Source: Basidiobolus meristosporus CBS 931.73 (lineage: Eukaryota > Fungi > Basidiobolomycota). From it: 64,000 bases of DNA. Positions 12,160-59,377 of the stretch are shown piece after piece. The stretch's first letter is position 1. The number at the start of each line of letters is the position of its first letter. The stretch covers positions 39,821-103,820 of the forward strand of contig MCFE01000280.1 of the NCBI GenBank assembly GCA_002104905.1. The letters are read 5' to 3'. The notes below the pieces were generated by a model, which was not told the DNA's origin, made no database searches, and saw only the letters and a program-made list of their open reading frames with translations. A program made the translations under genes and the position numbers.

Positions 12160-14090
12160 AATGGATACAGTAGCAGCAGAGATCTATATGCTCAGCTTTA
12201 TGTTTGTAGTATAAATGCTCAATGCCGGTCACAAACTCTTTGCACAAAAGCTGTAAATGAGCAGGTTAGTATTGGTGATCCACTTCTGGATAAATATTCC
12301 TACAATGTCCATATTTGACTCCCAATGCTTCCAATGTACTCTTGGCAGAAATGGCTTCAATAGGCCACTTGAATAAATATAAATCCAGTTCATCAAGTCC
12401 TTGCACTTGTATTGTTTCATATGTATATCAGTGTTGACTGGAGCTTGTGACCCTATGCAAAATAGTTTGGTCATGCAGGTGGATCCAATCCAGATCCACC
12501 ATCAAGATCCCATCAGAAGACTGCTATAATACAAGCAGCTTGGAGTTAATGGCCATCTGCAGAATCTGGTAATAGTAGCACAACAGTGTTTTGCTAATTT
12601 TATAGCCAAATAAAGTCAATAAAATGGAATGGTGTTTGTACAGTGTTTTGCCAAGGGTAGAATGGTATTGTAGCAGTCTTAGTGCATTCTACAGCTATTT
12701 GAGTGGATTTAACTGGCCAGTACATCCAATTGTCTTATAAGGCAAAACACTTGATGGTGTTTTGACAGCCTCATTACAAGCTATTGATGGCATTATATGG
12801 GCAGTATGGTGGCCTACAGCTAGTTTTGTATAATGCTACTGTACCAATTTACCAAATGGTATTTCCTTTTTCTACATCCCCATGCACATTTGTATTTTCA
12901 CTGTAGAATAACCGCACTTTTTTTGCTTACCCACTACTACCTTGGGTATTCCACATATAGTTCAGATCAAAGAATACTATGGCCTACTGCTTATTAGCCT
13001 CTACAAACACACACACCTGCCACAATTAACATACTTATATTACCTCTACTAGCAAATGGATAGTGTAACAGCAGAAATCTATGTGTTCAGCTTTATGTTT
13101 GTAGTATTGCCACTCAAATTCTGTGACAAGATCTTTGTACAAAAGCTGTAAATGCGCCAAGTTGGCTTTGGTGATTCACTTCTGGATAAATATTCCTACA
13201 ATGTCCATGTTTGATTCCCAATGCTTCCAATGTACTCTTGGCAGAAATGGCTTCCAAAGGCCACTTGAATAAATAGACTTGTTCTGTTGGATAGTGCCAC
13301 ATTGAGCCAGGAGTGCCAATTGATGCCATAGCATGCCAGGGAGGCCAAGCAAGCCTATACTAGGCCACAGAGTATGAAACATAGCTCAGCATCTTCATGC
13401 AAAGCAGCCCCTGTGCTTCACCCATTTTGTTGGAGAAAATCCATTTTTTGACCTTTTTTGGATCAATGTTGTGCAGAATGTGTAAGAGTACAGAAGGACT
13501 GAAGACATGCATCTGGTACTCAATACCCATGGCACTCTGAATCTATCTTCTGTAGCTAGTATCATGTCACAAAAATGAATGACACTATCTTTGTCCACTG
13601 GTACTATCAGGCACTATATGTAACTATTAGCCCTAGAGTAAGACCTATACAAAGCACATACAGTTCCTGATAGTACCAGTGGACCAAGATAGTGCCATTC
13701 ATTTTTGTGACATGATACTAGCTACAGGAGATAGATTCAGAGTGCCATGGGTATTGAGTACCAGATGAATGTCTTCAGTCCTTTGTGCTCTTACACATCC
13801 TGCACAACATTGATGCAGAAAAAAAGGTCAAAAAATGGATTTTTTCCAACACAATGGGTGAAACACAGGGGCTGCTTTGCATGAGCATGCAGAGCTATGT
13901 TTCACACTCTGTGGCCAAGTATAGGCTAGCTTGGCCTCCCTGGCACACTATGACATCATTTGGCACTCATGGCTCAATGTGGCACTATCCAACAGAACAA
14001 CTCTAATATATATCCAGCTCATCCAGCCCCTGCACTTGTAATGTTGCCTCTGCACATGAATGTTAATTGGAGCCTGTGAGAAGTACTTAG
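12160..14090 (-). repeat. Unclassified decayed coding repeat, about 0.9-kb unit in head-to-tail arrangement, interrupted by a MITE
   Basis: 12158-12455 recurs at 13053-13274 plus 14008-14085; 12465-13050 recurs at 3400-4066. Confidence 0.7.
13275..14004. mobile_element. Fold-back MITE (730 bp; about 337-bp inverted arms, 54-bp spacer), AAT TSD, termini shared with the element at 22484-25901
   Basis: Arms 13275-13611 and 13666-14004 are reverse complements. Ends are AGACTTGTTCTGTTGGATAGTGCCACAT and its complement. AAT at 13272-13274 and 14005-14007; the empty-site equivalent at about 12366-12385 fits. Confidence 0.92.
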
Positions 14091-18879: not shown

Positions 18880-21390
18880 AAATACACACTTTGACATGAT
18901 GGCCATTGACTGTTATCCTGCTGGCAAGCATACAATATTCATGCAGAAATGAATACAGGTAGCTATCCAGGTTGGATAGTCATTGAGGTGCAGATATCTG
19001 GGAGAATACCGTCAGATTTTGGCTCTGGTATCTTAAGATAGATGGCAGTTTCAAGTTGATGAGAATTGATCACCAGCAGAACTTTTAGGTAAAGTACTTA
19101 TTTAACAAGTGTCAATCAAGTGGCAAGGCAAAGGCATGATCATACATATCTTCAAAGTAGCCGTTGCTTCTAAGCTGTCTATAATGCTTGCCATCAAATG
19201 TATGGGATATGTTTGTGCTTGATTGATATTGAGTGCAGTACTTCATAACTTTGCAATATTTGTTGGACTGCCCAATATTCTTTAAACTGATAATACTGGA
19301 ATATATCTGGAGCATGAAAAGTGCTTAGCCCAATGGTGGTTGATACCTGACAAATGGAACTCCTTGCTATGGTAGCATTTCCTGATGTTAATGTCATGCA
19401 ACTGTTAATACATGCGGTTATCAAGACAGTCTCTGGGTCATATGTTGTCAGCTGCATGACAGTTATCCATTTATACTATGTACATGTTAAGTTACATCCC
19501 AGGATGATATTGGCAAGAACTAGTAGTAAATCAGCAAAGCCCCCATTACTGATATTAGTAGAACAACACCACTTCTCTAGCCATAACAGCACATTATTCA
19601 CAAGTATATGGATTACTGGGCTCACTTGACTCAATAAAGAACCTTCAACATTCTTTTACATGAGTGTTGTCTCATTGCATATTCAGATTTTGCCAGGCAC
19701 ATGCAGAGTACTGCTGTCAGTGGAGATAGGCTCACAAACTATCAGTAAGCCTGCTTCTTCAGAGCTATTACTCTGCATAGCATATTCAGAAGGCTGGGGT
19801 GAGCCTATAGATGTCATAAACTGACCTAACTCAGTTTGCCTAAGGTGACAAGTACAGCAAGGTGCTGTTACAGAGGTATCAACTGACTGGCACAATATTG
19901 CTGGTACAGTAGTGACCAAAGAATGATCTAATGAGACTTTTGTGACAAAACACTGCTGTAACTCTTGTAACACATCCTATGCTGTCTACATGCTTCATGG
20001 ATGAGAGGCTTGCTACAATAGCCACAATTGTCATTTCTCTCTTCTCTTAAAGTATTGAGTGAAAGAAGTCTGTGGTAATCAAATACTTTCCATTACCACA
20101 ATATCTCAAAACCAATATGGCGCTCATTTCTTTGTTTTGCTTTTGCTATTGTAACACACAAGTGAAAGATCAAGAAATGCCTACTTTGAAGGACAAAGCT
20201 CAAGACCCTGACAAGATATCCACCCAAAACATTATGTCATGCTGAACACTCCATAGCCAACACATGTTTCAAATTAAAGCTCATCTGAAGCAGCAATTAA
20301 GAAGTTATGATCAAAAGAGTCCAATTACAAAGTATATTAGGCCTCTATTGCTTGAATTACTATGGTGCCTTTGATCACATGTAGCAACTGAGCCAGCCAA
20401 TCATATCACGTGATACTCTAGGGGAGCTCAGAATTACAATATTAGAAAATGTTTTCTCTGCAAGGAAAGTGACTTCCAAATAAGAAAAAGTTACTACAAC
20501 AGTAAATAAGCCCAATAGCCAACAGAAGGTCAGAAAACTGCTGCACAAGTGAGAAACACTGCCTACAGTATATTTTGTGCCTAAGACTGAGGTTATTAGT
20601 GAAAGTTATATCTTCTATCAATATATCAACCTCCTAATAAACTAGTTCAGTACTAGCATACTGAAAGTTGTTGTATAATGTTGGTCAGCATCTGCATTAT
20701 AGAACAAGCCCCAAACTAATTATGATACAACACAACAAGTCTTGTCCACGGGGCAAACAGCTTAACACTCAACACTGTAACTCCATTATATGATTTTCTT
20801 GTTGATACTCATGTGAACTTAAGAAAGTCCTGTATTTGAGACAATGCATTTACATGAGTGAAAGATTCAATGATGACCTGCCATAGTTCACATTACAAAT
20901 AAAGCTGTGGCACCACATACACATGTATATGTATCACCGTTTCCCCTTTGGTCTAACTCACTTGTATATTTGTGCTGCCAAAAATAAAGCAAAGTCATCT
21001 TGTTCCCAATAAAACACCACTACTGACAGCAGCAGAAAAATGGTTTGACAACAGCTTGCTTTGACATTCAGTGCAACAGGTGAGGGTAAAGCCAAAAAAG
21101 GCCTGGTGAACAGTATGCCTGCTGCAAGTAGTAATGCAGACACCTCAGGCTCTCCATCAAGTAGGCAATTGAGAATCTCTGTTGAGCTGCAAGCTGACCA
21201 CAATGCTCAGGCAGATGAGAATATAGCAAAAGCAATACCTTCAGTTGAAAACCATTAAATGGTTGTTGTAACATCACCACCCACATTAGCAGGTAGTTTG
21301 TCAGCTCATACTAAAGCATTATCAAGGCAATTAGGTGCAGTGGCTGATAGGATATATGCAACAGCCTAGAGAAATCAGAATATAGTCCAG
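18880..21390. mobile_element. CACTA/EnSpm-like DNA transposon relic: transposase on - (about 18880-20050), accessory ORF on + (from about 21040), truncated
   Basis: The minus strand reads FDGKHYRQLRSNGYFEDMYDHAFALPLD...ILINLKLP...RY...LDSYLYSFLHE, matching the Transposase_21 pattern (FDG..Y..L...G.F...D.A...DG; INLNLPP..R; LDSFL.P..E). 19560-21390 is an inverted copy of 57530-58671 with about 690 extra bases. No TIR found. Confidence 0.65.
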
Positions 21391-22057
21391 GGGAAGTATT
21401 TAGATTCAGGAATGCATAGTTCATCAGGGTAGATGGTATTTTCAGATTTGGCCATAGAAACTAAAAGGATAGTAGAGACAGTATTAACGTGAGATCTGTT
21501 GGCAACAAGTAGGGCAAGGATCTTGTAAATTTTACCAAAGTTGAAACCGTATTATTTATGACCCAATAAACAGAAAGACATTTGAGGTCATTAAGATCTT
21601 TGTGGGAGGAGGAGACATCAAGATAGAGATTGACAGAATTTTTGACACAGACATGTAAAGGAAGGATGGAACCTCTGAGGTGAGTTTTGGGAGAGACAAG
21701 ATTATCAGCAACAGCAACGTAAGGGATGAAGATGTTGCGTAATTCTTAAATAAGAGGGATGTGTTTGATGCCACCAATGATGTAATAACCTTTGTTGTTG
21801 ATGAGGGGAGTTTTGCAGACAAGTTTGCTGTTATGGTGGATGTAATGTCCTTTGTAAGTAAGTCTTTGAATGATAGCATCATCAGAAGATATTTTTGGGG
21901 GGATGAATTTTATGTCAAAACCAAATTTATCATTAAGTTTGAATTCAAGTTTTTGTAAGACCTAAGTATAGGAGTGGGATATGTTAGCATCAAAACCATA
22001 TTCAAAGAAGAATCTTTGTAAAAGGTTGGAACAAAGATTCAAGAGGGAGGGAGGCAT
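21390..22057 (-). pseudogene. RNA polymerase second-largest subunit (RPB2/beta-like) N-terminal relic, probably viral
   Basis: From ATG 22057: MPPSLLNLCSNLLQRFFFEYGFDANISHSYT*VLQKL...DIKFIPPKISSDDAIIQRLTYKG...VCKTPLINNKGYYIIGGIKHIPLI*ELRNIFIPYV. Aligns in order with Rpb2 blocks FFREKG..S, PQEARLRNLTY, GRLPIM, GYFIINGSEKVLIAQE. No introns; stops at 21962-21964 and 21746-21748. Confidence 0.72.
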
Positions 22058-23226
22058 AATAGGGTGCTATATATTAGTGGTAGAGCAAGGAGGAAGAGCT
22101 GCAAAATAATTCAAAGTAATAAGTTTAAATGTAATGAGTCAGAACAAATAAATTTAAACTGGGACTAATTGTGGTTTTGTAAATTGAAGGCAAACTCCCA
22201 TGTTACCAAAGATACAATCTATCAATTGGGTTAAGTCAGAATTGTTTGAAGAATTAAAGGTATTTTTGTTGGAGCCAGTAGTGACAGGAGGGCCATACAT
22301 GAGAAGATTGGTAATGTATACATACAATGGGCAGACAGATCCAAAGGATTTGTGCATCAAACAGTAAGAAATCCAGAAGGGTTAATATTTTGTAAGGGAG
22401 TAGCAAAGGAGAAGTTTGCCCAGGGAGATAAAAAGGTAGAGACAAACTATACTACGGCAATGTTTACCTTGAAGGGCAATAATAGACTTGTTCCATTGTA
22501 CCATGCCAGGGTGTGCGGCACAATCCACAGTTGTAAAGAACAATCAGGCACAATATTATAGCTACCAGAAGGAAGGATTGTTCTTGGACAATTTTGCACT
22601 ATGCGGGACAATCTCGCACACTATGGCGCAATCTGACACAATGAGGTTGGCATGGATGATTGCGCCAACTTGTAATGTTTGCATCACATGCGCAATTGGA
22701 TACTGTTATTATGGCAGGTAAAATCCAGTATTTGGATATGTTTCTTTAATGTAAATGGAAATGAATGTGTATCATACTATAAACTACACAGATACTTACC
22801 ATTTTGATTACCCTCACTCTAATTGGATGGTATCTCAGTGGTTAATTGGTCCAAAAGTATCCTGAAGCTGGCAGCCCCCAATTGGCTCATTGACTACTAG
22901 AAAAGCTACCTGATTTGCCATCAAATATCCCATTTTGCTCATTGAGCAAGTAAATCCCTGATTGTAGTGATTGGCCAAGGTGTCATAGCCAGCACGCAAG
23001 CAATTGTGTAGGTGCAAAACAGATCCAATAGCTGCACTAGTATTACAGATGACATATATATATGCAGGGTGTTTATTTATAGGGGTTCTGTCTCAAATGT
23101 GAGATGACCTAGATATTACTTATATCAAGAATTTGATGATCACTGATTTGCAATGGCTTGATTTGGATTGCAAAAAAAATGGGTTGTCAGGATCATTACA
23201 AATTTGAGCAATTCCAAGCAATTGCA

Positions 23227-24474
23227 TTATCTTCTCCTGGGTTTTTTTCTCACAGGGATTACTACTGAAGCATCTGGTAGTGACTCACTTTGCACACCTA
23301 TACTACTTCCTGGCTGACTATCATCTTGGCTACTTGTGCATTTGTAGTCAGTATTTTGCCTCCTAGTTGATGAGTGTGATGCTACAGCTTGGCCACACTG
23401 AATTGCTCCAACTGAACCAACTGAACCGGCCTGTAGGGCCACACGCTGACGTGTTCTTTTACTTGCCAAGGGCTCTGGTGGTTGAGGCACTTCATGTTGG
23501 TCATCATCAGTCAGTTCACCAGAAGTAACTTGCTGATGGTCAGGCAAAACGGCACGTGCAGGCGCGCCTTGATGCATTGAGATGGCCCTTGGCTGAGTTC
23601 AATGTGATGCTGCAAGTTGATGCAACTTGGTCCGCTCCAATGGACTGGTGTCTAAATTAGCAGTTTGGCGAGTTCTTGTAGTTTTGCTCTGAAGCGCGCA
23701 TGTTGACCCAACGCGTGTTGACTCAATGCGGGGCGTTCTGGTAAAGGGTGTTGGCGTACTCTGGACTGACGTGCACTGGTGCGCTGTGGTTGCAAGAGAT
23801 GGTAGGGAATCCAGCAAGGCATGCTGGCGTGATCTGGACAATGTTGCTTGCAGTCTGTATTCTTCCTCCTGAAGCTCACCATCTGATTCCTCAAGGTATT
23901 CACTTACCCTCTGTCTGATACTTTGGAGCTGTTGCCTGGATGAGTCCTATGTATATTGCTCTTAGAAGCCACTGCGCTCTACTAATATATCACATAGTAC
24001 ATTAGTCATTTGAGGCAAAAACTCATTCAAAATCTCTTTGGTTCCCAAAGTTGAGGCACAAACGGACGCGTCCGGCCCATACTGTGCAAATTGCGCGCAA
24101 AATTGCTCCCGTGCGGCTTCTTTGTCAAATCCCCTCACTCTCAGCTGATTCTTGATTTCAATACTTGTCTTGTTATATATCTTTTTACATACATTGGCTG
24201 GCATCTTGATGTAGAACTCATGCCACAGCTTTCTACTCAAATTCTTCCATCTTTGTCGACTCCCTGAGGTATCTAGTTCTGCTAGATTAATTAGTAGTGC
24301 CCTAATATCTGTATGAAGGCTCATCGTAGACACTTGGGCCATACTAAAATCATTTGGCAAGAACTCAAACGGATCTGACATCGACTTTTCCGGTCCGGAC
24401 TGTGCTAGTGAGCTGGGGGATGGGTTTTGTCTGGGTTGTACTAAAGATGAGTTGAGGCTTGGTATGGGGACCAT
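23227..24474 (-). pseudogene. Accessory ORF2 of the PHIS element (415 codons, 3 internal stops)
   Basis: ORFs 23962-24474, 23599-23841 and 23227-23577 share one frame, separated by TAA, TAG and TGA. Helical N-terminal half, low-complexity C-terminal half, ends in the basic NLS-like PVRKKPRRR. Confidence 0.75.
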
Positions 24475-24833
24475 AGCAATGGATTTGGATACTTATACAG
24501 CAGTATATTGGCATCAACCTGGTCTTATATGAAATATATATGAAAACTAATGTGATTGTTGAATTTTCCATATATTATGCATGATGCATCTTGGATTGCG
24601 TTGACACGGATCAGATCACATCAATTGCAGATTTCCTATTTGATTATAGACCTATGATTAAAGCATCAATAAAAGTACCAAGGCATTGTTTGCGGATGAT
24701 TTTTGCGACATAATGACAGGATACATGGCAATTGATGGAGATTTAACCATAATGTATTAAAAATCAGATAAATAATGCGTATCGCGCCAAAGCAATTCAA
24801 ACCGCCTCAATACAATCATCCACCAATTTTAAT

Positions 24834-25718
24834 ATGACTTACTCATCTAAATGGTCTTTTCTCATCAATCCCATCACTACCACTGGATTTCCTTTTGACA
24901 CACTAGAGGAGATTGATTCCAAGTACTGTGGACCATCAACCCCAATCTACTCAAGGAGATCCCTTGTCAAGCTTCTCTGCTATTACAAGAACTATTGCCC
25001 TACAAGGTTTCATCCCACCATCCATGGCAACAAAAGTCCTAGAAGCTTTCATTCCCAGCTGACAGCAATGGAGAACCACCTTGCAGAGGGTATGAATGAC
25101 TTAGAGCAAGCTTGGAATACTAGGTTCAGAAGCTCCAATAGACTTCCATATCCCAGAGTGTTCAGCAACAGGTTCCATATCAGGAGTATTTTGGATACCT
25201 TCCCAGTGAGGATTAACAGACCTTTTAGAGGGCAGAGGCACTTTTATTCTGGCAAGTACAAGGCACACTGCGTGAAGTTTCAAGCACTGTCTGACATTGA
25301 GGGTAACATCATCTGGTTTAGTGGGCCATTTGCTGGAAGTAGGCATGACAAAGCACTCTGGGTAGAGAATCATCCTGAATTCAGTAGAGGGGAGAAATGT
25401 ATGGCAGACTTAGCTTATATAGGGGAGGATTGTCAGAGATTAGGATGTATTACTGCTTATAGGAATCCAAGGAATGGTGTGCTTAGCAGGAAGCAGAAGC
25501 TCTACAATGAGATATTTAATCATTTCAGAGTGAGGGTAGAGCACACATTTGGATATCGGAAGAGATTCAGCATATTGGCAGGTATATACAGAGGAAAGTC
25601 ATATATAGGAGAAAACAGCAGAATAGGTAAAATAGTTAAGATACTTATTAATGCACAGTATGTTCATACAAGAAGACATCCACTGAGAGAAATGTGTCTG
25701 GAGCATTATGAAGAGTAA
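24834..25718 (+). CDS. DDE_Tnp_4-type (IS5/Harbinger-like) transposase, 294 aa, apparently intact
   Basis: ILDTFPVRINRP, FYSGKYKAHCVKFQ, GSRHD, MADLAYIG, RVRVEHTFG: the catalytic acidic residues are present and there are no stops. Confidence 0.9.
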   Translation: MTYSSKWSFLINPITTTGFPFDTLEEIDSKYCGPSTPIYSRRSLVKLLCYYKNYCPTRFHPTIHGNKSPRSFHSQLTAMENHLAEGMNDLEQAWNTRFRSSNRLPYPRVFSNRFHIRSILDTFPVRINRPFRGQRHFYSGKYKAHCVKFQALSDIEGNIIWFSGPFAGSRHDKALWVENHPEFSRGEKCMADLAYIGEDCQRLGCITAYRNPRNGVLSRKQKLYNEIFNHFRVRVEHTFGYRKRFSILAGIYRGKSYIGENSRIGKIVKILINAQYVHTRRHPLREMCLEHYEE

Positions 25719-26773
25719 ATAAAGCAAGGAAAGTACTATTCTGAGCAACATAAGTAAGATTGAGTAAAATTACCAGTAACTGTATCATACCACTGGCATC
25801 ATGGTAGAAATTATAGTGCCAGATAGTGCCGTAGAGTGCCAGATTGATCCGGCACCATAAACAGGCTGGCACTATGTGGCACTATCCAACGGAACAAGTC
25901 TAATATGTATTATGTAGATTTTTGTAACTTATTGGGTAAGATATTAACCAGGGTATCAGAGGAGTTGGGGATAAGTGTATCAAACATTAAGGTACAGATT
26001 TTGGATTTGGATGATAAGTTGTTGTTGTATACAAGATTAATTCAGTCAAATGATGGGACAATTTATAGTGCAGCATATACAAATTAGAAGCAGGTAGATG
26101 TGAGTGAGGTAGGGAATGCAATGACAAGACCAGCAGTTAAATTTATGTTAACAAATAAGGACAAGAGTCAAGGAAGGCTTAGAATACAATGAAGCCAGAT
26201 GTATGTGGATAGGATTATAGAGTCTTTTCTGTTGGCAATTAGAGAGTAGAGGGGGAGAGAGATAGCACAACTATGGGAGAAATAAGATTTAAATAAATAT
26301 TATAGGAGAGAACAATTTGTGCAAGAAAGAAGAAGTATTTTCAAAAAGGAAAGAGAGCTAGGATTAAGATGTTAAGAAAGATTTGTGCAAGAAAGAGAGG
26401 TATTTTTAAAAAGGAACATGGCAGGAGGATGAGTTAAAATTTGAGAGTGGGTATAGAGGAGAAGGAAGTTATTAGAAGAGGGTATATACTTAAGAGAGTC
26501 AAGTGTGATATGAAATTATAAATTTGGGTTAAAACTAATATCTAATATAAGTTTGGTATTTAATTTTGGCTTTTAAAAAATAAATATAATCTTTTAATTT
26601 CAAACTCAAGTTGGCAACTTAATATTAATACTTATGTAAATACAACTACAAAATTTCTGCCATAAATTATTGTCATATATTATTGCCCCAAATTATTACC
26701 AGATAGTATTGCCAAAAATTAGTACCACAAATTATTTATTTGAGTTTGTGTAATATAGCCACATCCTATAACT

Positions 26774-27837
26774 CTATACCGTTTGTTTATTTGGTAAATA
26801 CACTATCTTGTCACCAGAACTTCTCCAAAGCTTTTCTTTTAAACCTAACAGTTTCCTAATGTTATTCATCAAACTAAGATGTTCCTTAAGCGGATTCCCA
26901 GGCTGCTCATTCAATATTGGAACCTTCCACAATGGCTTTGAAAAACATCTCTGAAATGTATCATCATCCCATTGTACAGCTACACAAATACCATCCTTGC
27001 TCACATATTGTGCCTTAACTCTCTTGGTTCCCAACTCTACAGGATAATCAAGATCTTGCGGTAAAAAAGCATCCTTGCCTGGAACTATTGTTGGTTTTAA
27101 CATTAAAGATACTTTTACGTCTATTAGTAATGATTACAACTTGTCATCATTTGTAAACATTGTTTTTCCCTTTGACAATATTACAGGCTCATATGTTGTT
27201 TTTGTTTTGAGAGACAACTTAGTATGATTCCTAAATATTATTATACCACAATTAAACTTCTGTTTCCAGAGATACCTACCATCATTGGGTGCATAAATGT
27301 TATATCCTTTGTTTTTTGTAACATATACTAAAATAATATCTATACCAAACATTTCCTCAAAATACCTATAACAGTATTTACTGTCCAAATTCTTTTTAGA
27401 ATTATTAAATGTCTCCACTACCATATCAAAAGGAATGTTACATGTTTCCTGTTTTGTTACCTCTAACCCTTCTGTACTAAAACCCTCTCTTATAACATCT
27501 ATCTGTTGGCTGAAATTCTTAAACAAAGTTGGATTTAAAGCATACAATATAGCTGCCAAAAAAGACAATGGACCTTGTTTGACTCCAACTGTAAAATAAG
27601 TATTCTTGATACATAAGTTTCCTATTGATGAACTTGGCAAAGGTCCCATTTTTCTTCCTCCAAATGTCTTAATAACCCAATTATTTTTGGTTTGTTCTCC
27701 CCTTTTGCTTTTTTTTCATTGTTTTGCCCAAAATAATATTTATAAGTTTTGCTACCAGGATGATTCATATGATCTGTTGTATAACAAGTTACCAAATGCA
27801 AAAATGTATCTCTATTAGATAACCTGTTTTTCTTCAA
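26774..27837 (-). pseudogene. Nucleocytovirus early transcription factor large subunit (VETF-L, poxvirus A7-like) central relic
   Basis: KKNRLSNRDTFLHLVTCY..DH, G-x-LP, YFTVGVKQGPLSFLAAILYAL, YRYFEEMFGIDIILV and KAQYVSKDG occur in the order I recall for pitho-/irido-/marseillevirus-type VETF-L. Intronless and AT-rich; one frameshift near 27650 and one stop at 27134-27136. Confidence 0.62.
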
Positions 27838-30029
27838 ACAACAAAAAATTTCTCAGGTAAAGTATAATATCTAGAATAAGTTGTAGGAGGATAAGGATAG
27901 CATATAACTCACCCACCCATATTTTGCTCCAGAAAGCAAGTTACAGTGTGCAGTCTTTTATCTGTTAGATGCAGCTCTACTGTGGTACCACAAAAAGATC
28001 AGGTCAACCACCATGATGGGATGCTCTACAAGATCCACCTGGGAAACACTTGTGTTGGAGATTCAGGATACTTTCAAACCGCCACACCAGCAGACACTAC
28101 TAGGAAGAAAGTTGAAGACACTCAGACAGAATGGAATGGTTTAAGAGTACATCTATGAATATATATGTCTACTTGGACAAATTGAAAAGAATGAACCTCC
28201 TGAATCAAGTGGAATACTTTATTGATGGGCTGAAAGAAAGAACTCTCATGGCAGTGAGTTATCAAAGACCTCAGACTATTGAAGAAGCAATCAAGATTGC
28301 CACTGACTATGACTCAGCTATGATTGAAGTTGGGAAGCCCTCAATGACTAATCAGAGAGGCTGCAATCACTCAGAAAGAAGACAATCAGAAGAAGTGCCA
28401 ATGGAAATAGACACTGTGCAGAAGAATGCTACCTGAGAAGAATGTAAGATGAAAGGAATTTGCTTTAATTACCACCAGCAAGGACATATAACAAAGTACT
28501 GCCCTCAGAGAAAAAATGGACACCAGCCATCAAGAACCTTCTACCATATTGAAGCCCTTGAGTAGAGTAACATGGGGGATGAACTTGATGAAGACTCAGA
28601 ACTCACCTTCCATATGACAGAAAAATACCTATCCCAGATGACCTCCAACTCAGGAAAGCTATTATACTTGAATGCAGTAATAAATGGAGTACCTGTCATG
28701 TGCATGATTGACTCTGGAGCATTGCAAGAGTACATTTCAGAGCAACTTGCTTTGATGTCTGGATACAACTTAGAACCTACCAAATCAACTTCAGTCTTAA
28801 CATCTCAATGGAACTCTCACATAAACAACTGTATTACTCAGCCAGTAAGGACAAATATCAATAACTATGAAGAAGACCTAAAGGCCTATATATTTGGGAA
28901 CTGCAAGTTGGATGTTGTACTTGGAAAAACCTGGCTATTTTGTTGTAATCCATCAATCATCTGGTGAACCAATGGAACTAAGATCCAGAAGGACAACAAG
29001 ACCTATGAGCTATTACCTGCAAGATTGGATTGAAGCTTGGTCAATTCCAGTGTGTGTGAAACAAATGAACTTACCAAGTAACAGCTCTGTATAGCACTTA
29101 AAAAAGGTACCCAGATGATCCTTATGACAGTATTACAGGAGAATTCCTCTACTCCAGGATCCCAGAAGGTGTAGACTCTTTTGAAGGAATATTCAGATGT
29201 ATTTCCAGAGGAACTTGTAAGCCTACCACCAGTCAGAGATGTGGATTATGCCATTGACACAGGAGATAGCCCTCTTGTAAGTAAGATACCTATCACAATA
29301 AGTCCATTGGAGTTGGAAGAGATGAAGCAATAAATAGATCAGCTATTGGAGCAAGAATATATCAGACCCAGCAAGTCACCATGGGGTGCACCAGTACTTT
29401 TTGTGAAAGACAAAGATGGAACACTAGGATGTACACTGACTACAGAGCCCTCAACTCAGTTGCTGTGAAGAATAAGTACCCCATACTTTGGATTGATCAG
29501 CTTTTGGACCAACTCAATGGAGCCACTATATTCAGCAAGATTGACCTTATGTCAGGATGTGGGTTATTACTGACTGTGCTTGGTGTGTGGGAGAGCTTGT
29601 AGGTCAAGTGAGTACCACCTGGCTCAGGATACCTTCTGATAGAAGGTAGCAAGGTACTAAAGACATATGTTTATTCCATGCTAATCTTCTCCTTTCTAAC
29701 TTGGTTCAATCAGATATATATATATCTCTTGGAGGGGCCTAGATAATAGACATGGTATTATAAAATAGGGGTGTGAACACCTTCCTGTTGTGGTAAGTGT
29801 TCTAACTAGATAAGGGCAAGAATAGGAGGGAGGATGTGTGGGGAATTCATAGGGAGGATATTGGGAGACTTTGGGTAGAACTCTGGGGAGAACTCTTGGG
29901 CAAAGAGTGGGTACTACATTTAGTACTCACATATCCTGGGGGTCAAGAGGGAACTTTGTCCTTGAAGTTCTTTGACTAACTTGCTTCTCCAGGGTCAACT
30001 TTGTTTACAGAGCCTGGGGAGTCATTATA

Positions 30030-53810: not shown

Positions 53811-54049
53811 TATATAAAAGACCATTATTAGTCCAGAACCTCTCTGCTACTATTTCTGCCACTCTCTGACAACTCTAAGATTCTGCACTTGGTTGTCACT
53901 TTGGTTCAGTTAAGTCATTCTGGAGTTTTATTACACTTTTCTCTTGTATGCAACACAGAGCTGCTTACTGACCTCAATGCTCAGGCAGATAAGAATGTAG
54001 CAAATGCAGTAACTCCAGTGGAAGACCAGTAAGTGAATGCATAATATCA

Positions 54050-54520
54050 CCACCACTAACACTGGCAAGTGTGTTGTCAGGTCATACAAAAGTACTGATG
54101 CAACAATTAGGTCTGATAGCTAATAAGATAGATGCAACAACCTACAGAAATCAGCAAAAGCTTCAGAAACAGGATGAGCTGATAGCACATTTAGAGCAAT
54201 TGGTATCCCAGGTAGAGAATGCAGTATCTTTGCTGCAAAGAAGGGACTGAGGTAGCTCCATGTAGCAGCTAAGAACTGAGCCATTTCCTGATGTAACAGT
54301 AAGAGAATACTGTAAAGTCTTTAAAGCACAACTACAGTGCCCAAAGAAAAGGCCCACTGAAAAATCTACCACAGCATGGAAGGAAGCAAATGTGATATTT
54401 TTACCAAAGCCTAAAAATTAAATATAGTGAAATTATGTGAAGCCTTTGAGTACAGTGATGAAAATTGAGCTAATATCCATGAGGTTATACAAAGTCTGCA
54501 GCCTTGATGTCTTCTGTTGC
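54050..54520 (+). pseudogene. Fragment of the CACTA accessory ORF
   Basis: Reverse-complement similarity to 57250-57520. Confidence 0.6.
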
Positions 54521-55289
54521 TGACAGAGTGAAGATCCCTCAAACTGGTAAAGTAATAACATTAAGAAATTTGAGGTTTATTATTAATCCTACAGTGAATT
54601 TTGGAGTATGATGAAGCACACAAAGAGTTTGCTGCACTTCTTTCAGAGCATTACTCAAGAGAACATACAGCAATATTGCAAGGATAAGTGGCAAAAACAA
54701 GCGGATGCAACCCTAGACCTTTAAGTGCTGGCTAAAGAACAGGATATATGAGAATCAGTGAATGAGCCATTGCATAATATTGTAGAACTCTGCCAAAGGC
54801 TTGGAAAAAGGGTGGTACTGTGGAAAGCTTGTAGTATAGTGGATCTTAATGGAGTCATTTGCAGAGTGTGAGGTTAACAGTGATGTTATTATGGTATATA
54901 GGGACTTGTGTAGGTCAGCACAATTGGTAGCTAAGTTATAATTGAAGATCCAATGGAAATGGATTCATTTGTGTGCATTTAAAGTTAGAGCATTGGTTGA
55001 GTCCAGGAGTAGGAAGTATGCAAAAGAGGTAATACCCAACCAATGTAATAAATGTAGGAGGTGATTGAGTTTCCTGGATCAGAATGCGACAGAACTGCCA
55101 GAAAGACAATCAAGAGATATTTAGATATTGTGGTGATGATAATTTTGACCAAGTCTTTTATGAGATTTGAGGTGCCTTTTTTATAAGTCTTGGCATGGCA
55201 TCCTAGCAGCATCAATACTGCTTAGTTACAGGATTTTGATTTTTGGGATAGCCTTTGACAGAATCATCATAATCATTGATCATAGGACA

Positions 55290-55540
55290 TCATTTGAAGT
55301 ACATTTTATTTTCATTGCACTGTGTTAGGTGGTTCCCCATTAATGTCAGCTGGGAATGAAAGCCTCTGGGACTTTTGTTGCTATGAATAGTGTGATGAAG
55401 CCTTGTAGGGTAATAGTTCTTGCAGTCATAGAGATGCTCAACAAGGGATTTCCTTGAGTATATTGTGGTAGATGGTCCAAAGTGCTTGGTGTCAATCTCC
55501 TCTAATATGTCCAAAGGAGTTATGGTGGTCCCTATGAAAA
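55290..55540 (-). pseudogene. 5' fragment of a second copy of the PHIS transposase
   Basis: LEEIDTKHFGPSTTIYSRKSL...HSNKSPRGFHSQLT matches the N-terminus of 24834-25718. Confidence 0.88.
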
Positions 55541-55959
55541 GTTATTGAGACAATCTTGTCAAAAGGCCATCACAAAGTTAAGGTCCCATGACTAAGAGGT
55601 AATGATCTTGTTGGGACACCATTCAGAGACTGTTGAAAAATAATCACACCCCAGATTTCACAAAAAACTTGGTCAAAATTTTTCATCACAACAATGTATA
55701 AATGGCTTTTGATTGGTTCCCTGCCAATTTGCACACTTTCATATCCCAGACACTCTATTGCCTCCTTTGTTTGTGTGAATTGATTGGCTATTGCCTCTTT
55801 TTCACACTCCTTACTTCCTGACTCAACCATTTCTCTTACTTTTCATGTGTACAAATTGATTTATTTCCATTGAAACTTTGGTTGTGCCTCAATTGCCAAT
55901 TGTATTGGCCTATACAAGTCTCTATACCATACACTAACATTAAGCCCAACCTCACACTC

Positions 55960-58671
55960 AACAAGTAACTCCATTAAAATTCACCACTCAATAAGTATTT
56001 CTGCTGTAATGCTCTGGTCTCACAACTCTGGTGGGAACCCAACAGCTTTATGCCACAGTTCATTCACTGGTTCCCACACATCCTGGTCTTCAGCTGGCAC
56101 TGCAAGGTCTAGCTTTGCATCTGCCAGTCTTTGCTATAAATCCTTGCAATATTCCAGTGCGTTTTCTTTAGCACTGCTCTTGAAGAAGTGCTGCAACCTC
56201 TTGATGTGCATATTAATGTTCTAAAACTCCACTGAAGGCATTGTGATAGTATTTGAAGCTCTGGACATTGTAGCCTTGTATGTCAGTGGGATCTCCACTC
56301 TGTCAACAATGGAGACTGTCAAGGCTGTGGAGGCTGTGGTAGACAAATTACCTTTTTCAGCAAACTCATCTACCTTGCTGGAGTGTAGCTCAACTGGCTG
56401 CACTTCCAACTCTTGTGAAAACAGCTATTTTCTTGTTGGTAATTCTTCTTGGCTGCAATGAGATTCAGTCTGTTCCTGGCTTGCAGTATTAGTTGGCAAG
56501 AACTGCAGTTTCTTTTGCATTCCTCCCTGTCTCAGGCTTGGGTCGACATTTTTCCCTTTACCTTTTCTTTTATCACTACCAGGTCTTTCACTGCTACTTT
56601 GTCTGAGTGCTTCTTGTAAAGAACTACATTTTCTGCTGGATAAATTCTGCTCTGACAGGTCTGTTTTGGCCTGCTTATCTCTTGCTGGCACTCTTCTGGA
56701 ACCTGATGTTTCTTTTCTGCTTGTTTTGAGCTCTCAACTGTAGTTGTGACAGGCTGCTATAAAAGCAGCTTATTTTCATCACTGCCAGGTCCTTCACTGC
56801 TACTTTAACTGGGTGCTTCTTGAGTGGTAATATGCTTTTTCCTTGATAAATGCTGTGCTGGTGCATCTGTGTCTGCCTACTTGTCCCTAATTGGCACTCT
56901 TCCAGCTACCTGACATATCTTTGATGCTTGTCTGGAGCTTTTGGCCCTGCTTATAACTGGCTCTTGAGGAAGCTGCTGGTGTTTAGCCATGGCTCCCTTG
57001 TTCTTCTGCCTTTGATAGTTTCTGCTATTCTTAAGATACTTTCTTAGCATACTAATGCTGGCCCAAAATCTATTTGCCCATTTGAATCCAGGATAATGCT
57101 GATGGAACAAGTCAAGTGCATTCTGCTTGGCCTTGAGTTCCTGATGGTACCATGGTATGCCGGCCTTAAGGTGATGGCATGCTAGACTTTTGATGGCCTC
57201 TTGTATATTAGCCCACTCTTCATTATTGCACTCAACAGCTTCACGGATCTTCAATGTCTTTGATTTTTAGGCTTTGGTATAATCACCACATTGTCTCCCT
57301 CCCATGCTGTGATAGGTTTTTCTGTGAGCTTTATCTTTGGGCACTGTTGTTGTACTTCAAAGACTATACAGTGTTTTTCTGCTGTTACATTGGGAAATGG
57401 CTCAATTCTTGGCTGTGTCATTAAGCTACTTGAGTTCCTTCTTTGCAGCCAAGATACTGCTTTCTTTACCTGGGATATTGATAGCTCTACACGTATTATC
57501 TGCTCATCCTGTTTCTGGACTATTTCCTGATTTCTCTGGGCCATTGCATCTATCCTATCAGCCACTGCACCTAATTGCTTCATTAATGCTTTTGTATAAG
57601 CTGACAACATACTTGCTAATATTGGTGGTGGTGATGTTATCATGGCCTCTTGCTGATCTTCAACTAAGGGTACTGCGTTTGCTACATTCTCATCTGCCAG
57701 AACATACCAGTCAGCTTGTGGCTCCGCAGAGGTTTTCAATTGCCTACTTGACTGAGAGCCTGAGGAGTCCACATTATTACCTTCAATGGGCACACTGTCC
57801 ACAGGGCCTTTTTTGGATGTAGTGCTGCTTGTTGCACTGAATGTCAAAGCAAGCTGTTGTCCAACCATTCTCTGTAGCCATCAGTGGTGGGGTTTGATTG
57901 AGAACCAGACAACTTTGCTTTATTTTTTGGCAGCATATATATGGAAGTGAGTCAAACCAAAGGGGAAATAGTGTTACATATACATGTGTATGTGGTGCCA
58001 CAACTTTATTTTTCATGCTTACAATGGCAGATCATCATTGAATCTTACATTCATGTAGGTGCAATGTCTCAAATACAAGACTGTCTTAAGTTCACATGAG
58101 TATTGACCAAAAAGTGATATAATAATGTTATGTTGTTGAAGGTCAAGCTGTTTGCCCCATGGACAAGACTACTTTAACTCAATGCTATAAGAGAAGAGAA
58201 AAAAGACCATGTGGCTATTGTGGCAAGCCTCTCAGCCATGAAGCACACAGATAGCATAGGAAGTGTTACAAGGATCATGGCCAGTGTTTTCCCACCCAAG
58301 TCATATTTGATCATTCATCAGTCACTACTGTGCCAACATTATCTTGCCAGCCAGTTGATACTTCTATATCTGCACCTGGCTGTCTTTGTCACCTTGTGCA
58401 AACTGAGTCAGGTGAGTTTGTGACACCTTTAGGCTCACCTCAGCCTTCTGAATATGGCACACAGAGTGGTAGCTCTGACAAAGAAGGTTCACTGATGGAT
58501 TTTGAGCCTATCTCCCCTGACAACAGTACCACATATGAGCCCAGTCAAATCCCTATATGCAATGAGACAACACCCATTGAAACAAATGCCAAGGATACTT
58601 TATGGAGCCAAGTGAGCCCAGTAATCCATATACGGGTGAATGATGTAATGTTGTGGCTAGAGAAGTGGCGT
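55960..58671. mobile_element. CACTA/EnSpm-like relic: accessory ORF on - (57868 to about 55960), 5' part of transposase on + (about 58170-58671), cut by an LTR
   Basis: Inverted homology to 19560-21390, whose continuation is Transposase_21-like; CGYCG motif near 58210; long minus-strand ORFs 57251-57868 and 56877-57254. Confidence 0.62.
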
Positions 58672-59377
58672 TGTGGTGGTGTATAAGTCCAAGGGAGAGA
58701 TACGTCCAACACTTCTCAAGTATTTTGTGTGTGGGGTGTTCACTGGGTGCAATAACCTCTGGCAAAAGCTTGCTAGGAATACTTGGGTTCTGTCTCTAAT
58801 CTAATGTGAAGGGGAATAAAGCCACAAGCTTGTCAAGGGAAAACTATTGAGCTACAATCCCCAACTTAGTTGGCATCTTAACAAAAGTATGTGCTGGGTT
58901 CAGCATCCCTTGAGATGACAATGTACCAAAGCTTCCACAGTCAAAACAACTGTAAACTCCACCAGCAGGGACTTGATAAGAATGCAGCTGTGGTCAATAG
59001 TTACAAAGACAGAAAAGTATCTTTGCCTGTACAAGAACAAACTTGGGAAAGAATCAAATATAATAAAAGATACCTACTCTGAGTATTCCTCACAAGTAGT
59101 GCCTCCAAGGTCAGTTGGCTGTTGGCACGGTTTCCTGGGAGTGTCCTGTGGTCTAGGGTTGGAAGTTCAGGTAGCAGCAGGTAGCAGTGATCACACTAAT
59201 CAACAAGTTGGTATATTGATAAAAGGGATGATGATTAATTGTTGGGGATAGCCTCCCTTATATACTTTTCTTACTGGCTAAGTGATTACTAATCATGGTG
59301 TTCCAGAAGGTTCTGGATATCAAATAGAAGTCTTAATGACATCAGAATGACCTAAGAATGTTCTAAGTAGGTGCCGG
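58672..59377 (-). mobile_element. Gypsy B LTR, interrupted after 706 bp by another Gypsy B element
   Basis: Matches the first 706 bp of 7733-8803 and stops at GTGCCGG. Confidence 0.95.

Follow-up and report, generated by a model that had tools for sequence, protein, structure and literature searches.

Introduction

Fungi of the genus Basidiobolus and the family Mortierellaceae harbor fundsalphaviruses, endogenous viral fossils that were found by Gong, Zhang and Han (2020) through their DNA polymerase, which was placed next to that of Pithovirus (PMC7017919). Like the elements considered here, they carry D5, an SNF2 helicase, a methyltransferase, RPB2, RPB5 and a split RPB1, and their broken copies lie among retrotransposons. 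The parts of that paper available to us claim neither an intact genome nor loss of the capsid nor a high-copy form, and VETF is absent from the supplement text searched. The present analysis concerns a 64,000-nucleotide stretch of Basidiobolus meristosporus CBS 931.73 (contig MCFE01000280.1, positions 39,821 to 103,820 of the forward strand), referred to below as the window. At 21391-27923, in fungal DNA rich in transposable elements (TEs), the window contains what we regard as the eroded remains of part of a fundsalphavirus-type element. The likely source is a cytoplasmic replicon of about 35-55 kb, plasmid-like and without a capsid, an explanation in which we place moderate confidence, and such a plasmid may still replicate in Basidiobolus.

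The NCLDV-like (nucleocytoplasmic large DNA virus-like) regions of the moss Physcomitrella patens were placed in the fundsalphavirus clade (PMC7017919). These moss fossils, up to 13 kb long, silent and methylated, share the same 12 named genes with the elements described below, including SSB, FLAP, UDG, TFIIS and a split RP1, and likewise have no capsid or packaging ATPase; the available text describes no intact element or cargo (PMC4083422). With regard to their origin, Maumus et al. decided against both a mitochondrial plasmid and a TE, leaving two options, a 'helper-dependent' entity or a 'fragment of a larger virus' (PMC4083422). In the available part of a Sphagnum study, capsid-bearing metagenome-assembled genomes (MAGs) lie outside the moss clade. 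All of these papers, and those cited by PMC number below, were available in part, and statements about them refer to the available text.

Three viral pseudogenes in the window

With a 3,418-bp transposon set aside, the viral DNA comprises 1,093 and 2,019 bp (about 3.1 kb), with CpG observed-to-expected (o/e) ratios of 0.16 and 0.08. An initial annotation, made from the sequence and its open reading frames (ORFs), had described this DNA as AT-rich and as holding three decayed frames: an RPB2-like N-terminus, a gene without a name and a VETF-L-like segment. All three frames are borne out and the middle one can now be named; the base composition is indeed lower in GC, but only modestly so (31-36% against 40% for the whole window).

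The rightmost pseudogene, on the minus strand at 26732-27923, retains the C-terminal 395 codons of VETF-L (DUF5757), interrupted by two frameshifts and in-frame stops. When longer proteins were searched with this piece, one match emerged among 1,372 candidates: P0005, an intact 841-amino acid DUF5757 protein encoded on a 4.6-kb contig. Window positions 27923-26744, read on the minus strand, align with P0005 residues 447-840 in three frames (75, 80 and 71% identity; E 3e-169), and the stretch at 27716-27900 matches PF19061/DUF5757 (E 3.9e-7). A P0005 model from a 9-row alignment reached a pLDDT of 52 with TM-scores of at most 0.25, and the single-sequence fold was unusable (pLDDT 33); because the model is poor, its fold matches were used to assign the family and not the structure. 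The model's top-ranking viral matches come from iridoviruses, marseilleviruses and pithoviruses, with many annotated as early transcription factor large subunit (E as low as 7e-22). In PDB, chain K of the poxvirus pre-initiation complex 7amv ranks first (E 2e-5), and TBP folds come next. P0005 gave no usable match in the Atlas. The identity of the right pseudogene as VETF-L is confirmed.

The leftmost pseudogene, also on the minus strand, is the 5' part of an RPB2 gene of the compact fundsalphavirus type, running from an ATG at 22057 to a cut at about 21391 (21391-22057) with in-frame stops. By itself the piece finds no match in Pfam, PDB or a word-indexed protein search. It is 27% identical over 180 amino acids, from the start of the protein, to the compact RPB2 that adjoins VETF-L in the relative L001 (E 8e-12, pairwise), and a compact-RPB2 profile run over six frames of the whole window has its sole match at 21647-22030 (independent E-value 3e-13).

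Between the two lies an SSB-family (DUF2738/DUF5871-like) pseudogene on the plus strand. Its 5' part at 22200-22483 covers profile positions 5-49 and 40-89, with a frameshift near 22320, and its 3' part at 25905-26249, which has in-frame stops, is in frame with the 5' part, so that the reading frame runs on unbroken across the transposon. The family profile yields three colinear matches, at 22203-22337, 22313-22480 and 25914-26216 (best independent E-value 3.8e-17). Proteins of this family, 190-230 amino acids long, are found in the relatives; the profile matches a DUF2738 protein (E 5e-11), DUF2738 being presumably SSB, and the Atlas links one member to Nucleocytoviricota-only clusters at 0.93-0.96. 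A PDB search with the family gave no match. The head-to-head order of RPB2 and SSB is common to the window, L020/L021 and L026. Profiles for RPB1-N, RPB1-C, PolB, D5, capping enzyme, VETF-S and A18 found no further matches in the window. Short purine-rich direct repeats, spaced 65-66 bp apart, occupy 26309-26416 between the SSB and VETF-L pseudogenes.

Homology of VETF-L, RPB2 and SSB supports the nucleocytovirus origin originally proposed, and the window and its relatives together hold VETF-L, virus-type RPB2, DUF2738-like SSB, PolB and D5, as expected of Nucleocytoviricota descent. That the frames instead stem from the host's own genes, from TE proteins or from a chimeric assembly is very improbable. 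The RPB2 piece alone matches no library and no listed contig bridges the outer junctions; against this stand the match of the VETF-L piece to an intact family member at E 3e-169, the membership of the middle gene in a virus-only family, a host TE with its target duplication inside that gene, CpG loss like that of the flanks, and a contig with zero differences that spans the SSB-transposon junction. Both RPB2 and VETF-L profiles found their matches.

Placement in a known lineage

At E 0.001 or better, a representative search with VETF-L returned 361 proteins. Of the 150 matches listed, those of 530-880 amino acids rank above the canonical proteins of 1,000-1,500, and these shorter proteins form one side of the tree both in FastTree (163 rows, those below 430 amino acids excluded) and in a quick IQ-TREE run on 39 rows picked by hand, in which long branches were flagged (support 99-100). 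Only four of the 30 proteins looked up carry the name of a eukaryote, namely Basidiobolus ranarum, B. meristosporus, Podila clonocystis and Linnemannia elongata, and all four are non-zoosporic early-diverging fungi. The window piece forms one group with B. meristosporus P0016, B. ranarum P0014 and the intact P0005 (support 99-100), and is nearest P0016, at 92% identity over 185 columns. An early-diverging fungal host, as implied by the initial annotation, is supported. The VETF-L of a 35,106-bp metagenomic contig, described below, groups with the Podila and Linnemannia proteins (support 100).

The Linnemannia VETF-L sits on a 16,401-bp contig, the same size as the fundsalphavirus scaffold KV442190.1 of Mortierella elongata (16,401 bp; Gong 2020, Fig. 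S2, PMC7017919), a link made by length and species and not by accession. As for gene content, RPB2 is present in the window, and D5, SNF2 helicase, methyltransferase, RPB2, RPB5 and split RPB1 are present in the 35-kb relative. Given the shared hosts, gene set and scaffold link, the lineage is already known, as fossils. The suggestion of an undescribed lineage must therefore be withdrawn, since fundsalphaviruses have been reported from both B. meristosporus and B. heterosporus (PMC7017919). Judged by its sequence, the window fossil is an additional member of this lineage, known in Basidiobolus. Ariadnavirales, also considered, were rejected because, in the source text available, that group lost genes that are kept here.

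Two further proteins of the tree deserve mention. P0030, a member of the clade filed at NCBI under a Phenylobacterium MAG, lies on a 35,213-bp contig and probably represents a mis-binned element of similar size. L003, a 40-kb contig from IMG/VR, is a deeper-branching relative with a 742-amino acid VETF-L, a 780-amino acid RPB1 N-part and DUF2738, and may mark an earlier stage of reduction. A search with P0005 alone found no viral contig, and neither the L021 RPB2 query nor PLSDB gave any match.

Gene content of intact relatives

Related loci drawn from IMG/VR and JGI metagenomes make up a set of 11 contigs and 209 kb. One of them, the 35,106-bp contig (L046, L044, L026), was read end to end and carries a replication and early-transcription core together with cargo. 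The core consists of FEN1, RPB1-C, RPB5, VETF-L, TFIIS, UDG, RPB1-N, a VETF-S-like helicase, a capping enzyme (a weak match, E 0.02), PolB, RPB2, SSB and D5, in addition to two conserved proteins without a family name. One further ORF, without a Pfam match, is presumably primase-like on the strength of its motifs. The cargo proteins have apparent signal peptides, and one contains bulb-type lectin domains. Stretches without an ORF of at least 140 amino acids are all shorter than 1.4 kb and consist mostly of one 126-bp repeat family; one of them holds TFIIS. Tandem and inverted copies of this repeat occur in most intergenic gaps (e.g., L026:1-1400) and at both contig ends, and are candidate origins or telomere-like ends. 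No integrase or transposase was found among the ORFs of this contig.

A second contig of 51,666 bp, of which 44.1 kb was read, shows the same core, with helicase and RPB5 not seen in that part, and adds a MutS-HNH protein, a peptidoglycan-binding lysozyme and a lectin-domain protein. Further related loci carry a NucA/NucB nuclease and a PT-TG protein. Across the cargo loci (L044:6944-10714, L001:15427-17781, L018:3101-8010, L047:532-3468 and L021:748-5508), Ser/Thr-rich lectin-domain proteins, PT-TG, lysozyme with a peptidoglycan-binding domain, NucA/NucB nuclease and a Cys-rich secreted protein were observed. The Ser/Thr-rich lectin-domain proteins resemble pore-formers to our eye, a likeness for which no database match was obtained. 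No match to GH18 chitinase appeared among the ORFs scanned. In 10 of the 11 related contigs the CpG o/e ratio is 0.85-1.39 (0.46 in L024), compared with 0.08-0.16 in the window; with their normal CpG, these ten are thus unlike methylated fossils.

Copies in sequencing reads

Read data offer a view of related copies outside the assembly. X1 and X2 represent one sample; X4 comes from a different study with the same species label and another organism code; X3 contains next to none of the stretch. In X1/X2 the depths over the viral pieces add up to 155-296, compared with 68-106 for single contigs, and a second copy, some 89% alike, extends beyond the left edge. In X4, copies 87-93% alike extend beyond both edges. 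Since copies in both data sets run past one or both of them, the edges are peculiar to the window copy.

In X4 a single contig over the most conserved stretch of VETF-L has a depth of 5,994.7, and the other related contigs have depths of 7-16. This deep contig and a contig of depth 7 both encode R501 and S468 as in P0005, in place of the H and L of the window, and neither has the frameshift near 27840. At 27910 a loose end goes on with VETF-L-like codons that differ from those of P0005, and therefore belongs to another variant. Bin arithmetic suggests that a record of about 6,000 depth also extends over part of SSB and some 50 bases of RPB2; this was not counted, as TE ends and tiny contigs could account for the bins.

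Search for virion genes and the probable nature of the source

Pfam searches of 131, 38 and 26 ORFs of the relatives (overlapping sets) found no capsid, A32 or VLTF3, and recovered a control capsid at E 2e-54. An A32 profile found none in the 209 kb of the 11 related contigs, and did find four control proteins, three of which were its own training rows. A single capsid query over the same 209 kb matched only itself. The double jelly-roll capsid, A32 ATPase and VLTF3 expected of a virion-forming element were thus not seen, in searches of limited sensitivity for divergent forms. Maumus (2014) likewise describes the moss copies as without capsid or packaging ATPase (PMC4083422). With intact relatives on contigs of 35-50 kb that have no recognizable coat genes, the element is likely a plasmid inside fungal cells and not a particle. 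For the same reason the giant or large virus named by the initial annotation is doubtful, and the window element is probably not giant.

Several observations weigh against a capsid-less replicon. The capsid probe was one distant sequence, and Pfam did not name a control A32-like protein (25 families shown). Nine of the 11 contigs were covered only within 10 kb of VETF-L, and the 51.7-kb contig minus 7.5 kb. Some fungal matches to MCP (the main protein of the capsid) and to A32 were reported by Gong, not tied to these loci (PMC7017919). The two nameless core families have no PDB match. The termini of the 35,106-bp contig overlap by 116 bp, with both direct and inverted repeat copies at the ends; this overlap lies inside the repeat family and has another identical copy, so closure is suggestive only and the contig may be a repeat-bounded fragment. 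Lastly, the deep X4 contig is visible over about 260 bases, and contig depth is not copy number.

Some of these points would suit a different source, a true small-to-large Pimascovirales-like fungal virus with virion genes that are on another segment, never co-assembled or too divergent, which would make the window an ordinary viral fossil. Poxvirus virions package VETF, which counts for such a virus. The irido-, marseille- and pithoviruses of this order provide the top Foldseek matches for VETF-L, the Gong DNA polymerase tree pairs fundsalphaviruses with Pithovirus, the related contigs end in repeats, and a depth of about 6,000 equally fits a replicating virus. However, the whole core fits within 35 kb with no spare coding room, and no virion gene, VLTF3 included, was matched in the 209 kb or is described in the moss copies (PMC4083422). 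Pimascovirales form virions, and their VETF-L is mostly 1,000-1,500 amino acids long as opposed to 530-880 here. We consider a true fungal virus of this kind somewhat unlikely as the source.

A nuclear existence, in which the elements are self-synthesizing transposon-like units or amplified repeats and the deep contig is a collapsed chromosomal array, is improbable. Diverged copies, numbering two to three per genome in X1/X2 with more in X4, the interspersed repeats of the relatives and the 26 DNA polymerase copies in Neocallimastix (PMC7017919) agree with amplification, but the 35-kb contig encodes neither integrase nor transposase and the intact contigs have normal CpG. Moreover, the presence of a capping enzyme, an RNA polymerase and VETF suggests the cytoplasm as the site of action, an argument that Maumus also raised against a TE (PMC4083422).

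Comparison with killer plasmids and Mycodnaviridae

If the source was a cytoplasmic plasmid, the natural comparison is with the cytoplasmic virus-like elements (VLEs), or killer plasmids, of yeasts and non-Dikarya fungi. On our reading these work in a similar way: they have no capsid, encode a two-part RNA polymerase as well as a capping enzyme and helicase of their own, carry secreted cargo, reach high coverage and occur in the same fungal phyla (PMC13348850). The relatives share with pGKL-type VLEs the lack of a capsid and the possession of an RNA polymerase, capping enzyme and helicase of their own; they do not have the protein-primed PolB with terminal protein. VLEs replicate with that polymerase and have terminal inverted repeats (TIRs), whereas the relatives encode a PF00136-type PolB with exonuclease, D5, FEN1, UDG and VETF-L (PMC13348850). 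Their cargo, of lectin, lysozyme, nuclease and PT-TG type, also differs from that of VLEs (PMC13348850). According to Heneghan et al. (2026), VLE transcription genes derive from Nucleocytoviricota; the same work describes a VLE-like 10-kb Podila contig at 60x with two unidentified ORFs (PMC13348850). The Podila clonocystis VETF-L in our tree, P0031, lies on a 10,544-bp contig. If this were the 10-kb Podila contig of Heneghan et al., the clade would be tied to VLEs.

Mycodnaviridae (Myers et al. 2026) also represent nucleocytovirus DNA in genomes of early-diverging fungi, in integrated and high-coverage states (PMC13533422). They differ by their size of about 200-350 kb, a core with MCP and VLTF3, zoosporic hosts and a position basal to Imitervirales (PMC13533422). 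None of their core (MCP, VLTF3, YqaJ, RNR, PCNA; 200-350 kb) was found in the scanned relatives, and the window element is not a member of this family. In the text available, the MCP-based screen of Myers et al. found none in 40 non-zoosporic genomes, and such a screen would miss capsid-less elements (PMC13533422).

Setting of the locus and the inserted transposon

The window is TE-rich and nearly CpG-free except for a GC-rich gene at 2-718, the 3' part of a UapA-type permease gene on the plus strand. Its match to UapA, the uric acid-xanthine permease of fungi (E 4e-70, with the second-ranking family at 2e-10), identifies the host as a fungus. This gene has 59% GC and normal CpG, and near 2 kb there is an abrupt change to CpG-free TE DNA. 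In the viral pieces, methylation-type CpG loss (o/e 0.08-0.16) and the in-frame transposon agree with the erosion by methylation and TE insertion that had been supposed from the outset.

To the left, the viral segment is flanked by a high-copy repeat (19563-21390, strand not assigned), of which an inverted copy with about 80% identity lies at 57515-58674. Its inverted relative at 53900-58700 has internal inverted arms (54041-54497 and 57184-57640), and a patch of 190 bp in it is 84% similar to the transposase region at 24890-25081. Pfam gave no match for either, with the plus frames scanned over 19000-21400 and the minus frames over 53900-58700, and the label CACTA earlier given to the left edge is unconfirmed. 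To the right, the Gypsy gag assignment stands, with the edge corrected to about 27923: a Ty3/Gypsy gag-protease remnant at 27924-29600 on the plus strand (Retrotrans_gag E 4e-7, with aspartyl protease matches) abuts the cut VETF-L. It starts within gag, and no long terminal repeat was seen. Since both outer junctions sit inside TE sequence and not at TE termini, capture or deletion fits better than clean insertion.

The transposon within the SSB-family gene (22484-25901, strand not assigned) is a very high-copy DDE element of PIF/Harbinger-superfamily type, with a DDE_Tnp_4 transposase (E 3e-21), 15-bp TIRs with one mismatch and a 3-bp target duplication, AAT, flanking both sides. The transposase ORF lies at 24753-25718 on the plus strand, and a decayed second ORF on the minus strand, in which a Myb/SANT domain was sought, has no Pfam match. 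We take the element to belong to the subgroup named 'Pangu' (ANT target). A nested inverted-repeat element at 13274-14013, with arms of 186 and 128 nucleotides that are 92-95% complementary, has ends that match the transposon's right end (25866-25910) and is probably, on these sequence features, a miniature inverted-repeat transposable element of the same family.

Proposed life cycle and significance

In the mechanism suggested by the relatives' genes, VETF would bind early promoters and load the element's own polymerase, and capped mRNAs would be made without the nucleus, so that an element with its own polymerase, VETF and capping enzyme could work in the cytoplasm. Because a virion module was not found, passage would be vertical through hyphae and spores or by hyphal contact, as in killer plasmids. 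Secreted cargo, whose function is predicted from sequence, may pay for the element's upkeep. Since no integrase was found, nuclear copies would be accidents: pieces would reach the nucleus by chance, become CpG-methylated, mutate and be cut by TEs.

Taken alone, the fossil adds a further fundsalphavirus copy to a genus already known to carry them. What is new is the fully read 35,106-bp relative with core and cargo and no capsid or packaging ATPase, the single X4 contig at about 6,000 depth, and their reading as a capsid-less replicating plasmid, which was not found in the literature searched, where most subscription papers were missing. DUF5757 returned no papers in that search and the term 'fundsalphavirus' only the 2020 paper. 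A wider proposal, which we put forward tentatively, is that fundsalphaviruses, instead of being fossils of extinct giant viruses, represent an extant class of cytoplasmic plasmids, 35-55 kb in size, without a capsid and derived from Pimascovirales-like viruses, with RNA-primed replication, a full early transcription machine and secreted antagonistic cargo, present in hundreds of copies in Basidiobolus. They could then be the missing relative of the nucleocytovirus that donated the two-part RNA polymerase, capping enzyme and helicase of killer plasmids.

The findings bear on two questions in print: why NCLDV-like fossils of mosses and fungi never include capsid genes (PMC4083422), and from which nucleocytovirus the killer plasmids obtained their transcription module (PMC13348850). 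Both become testable through the intact relatives of 35-50 kb and a copy of very great depth in a public sequencing run of a fungus that can be cultured. If the plasmid explanation is true, fungi would host a capsid-less member of the giant-virus phylum that is invisible to capsid-based screens, and with it a minimal cytoplasmic system for replication and transcription.

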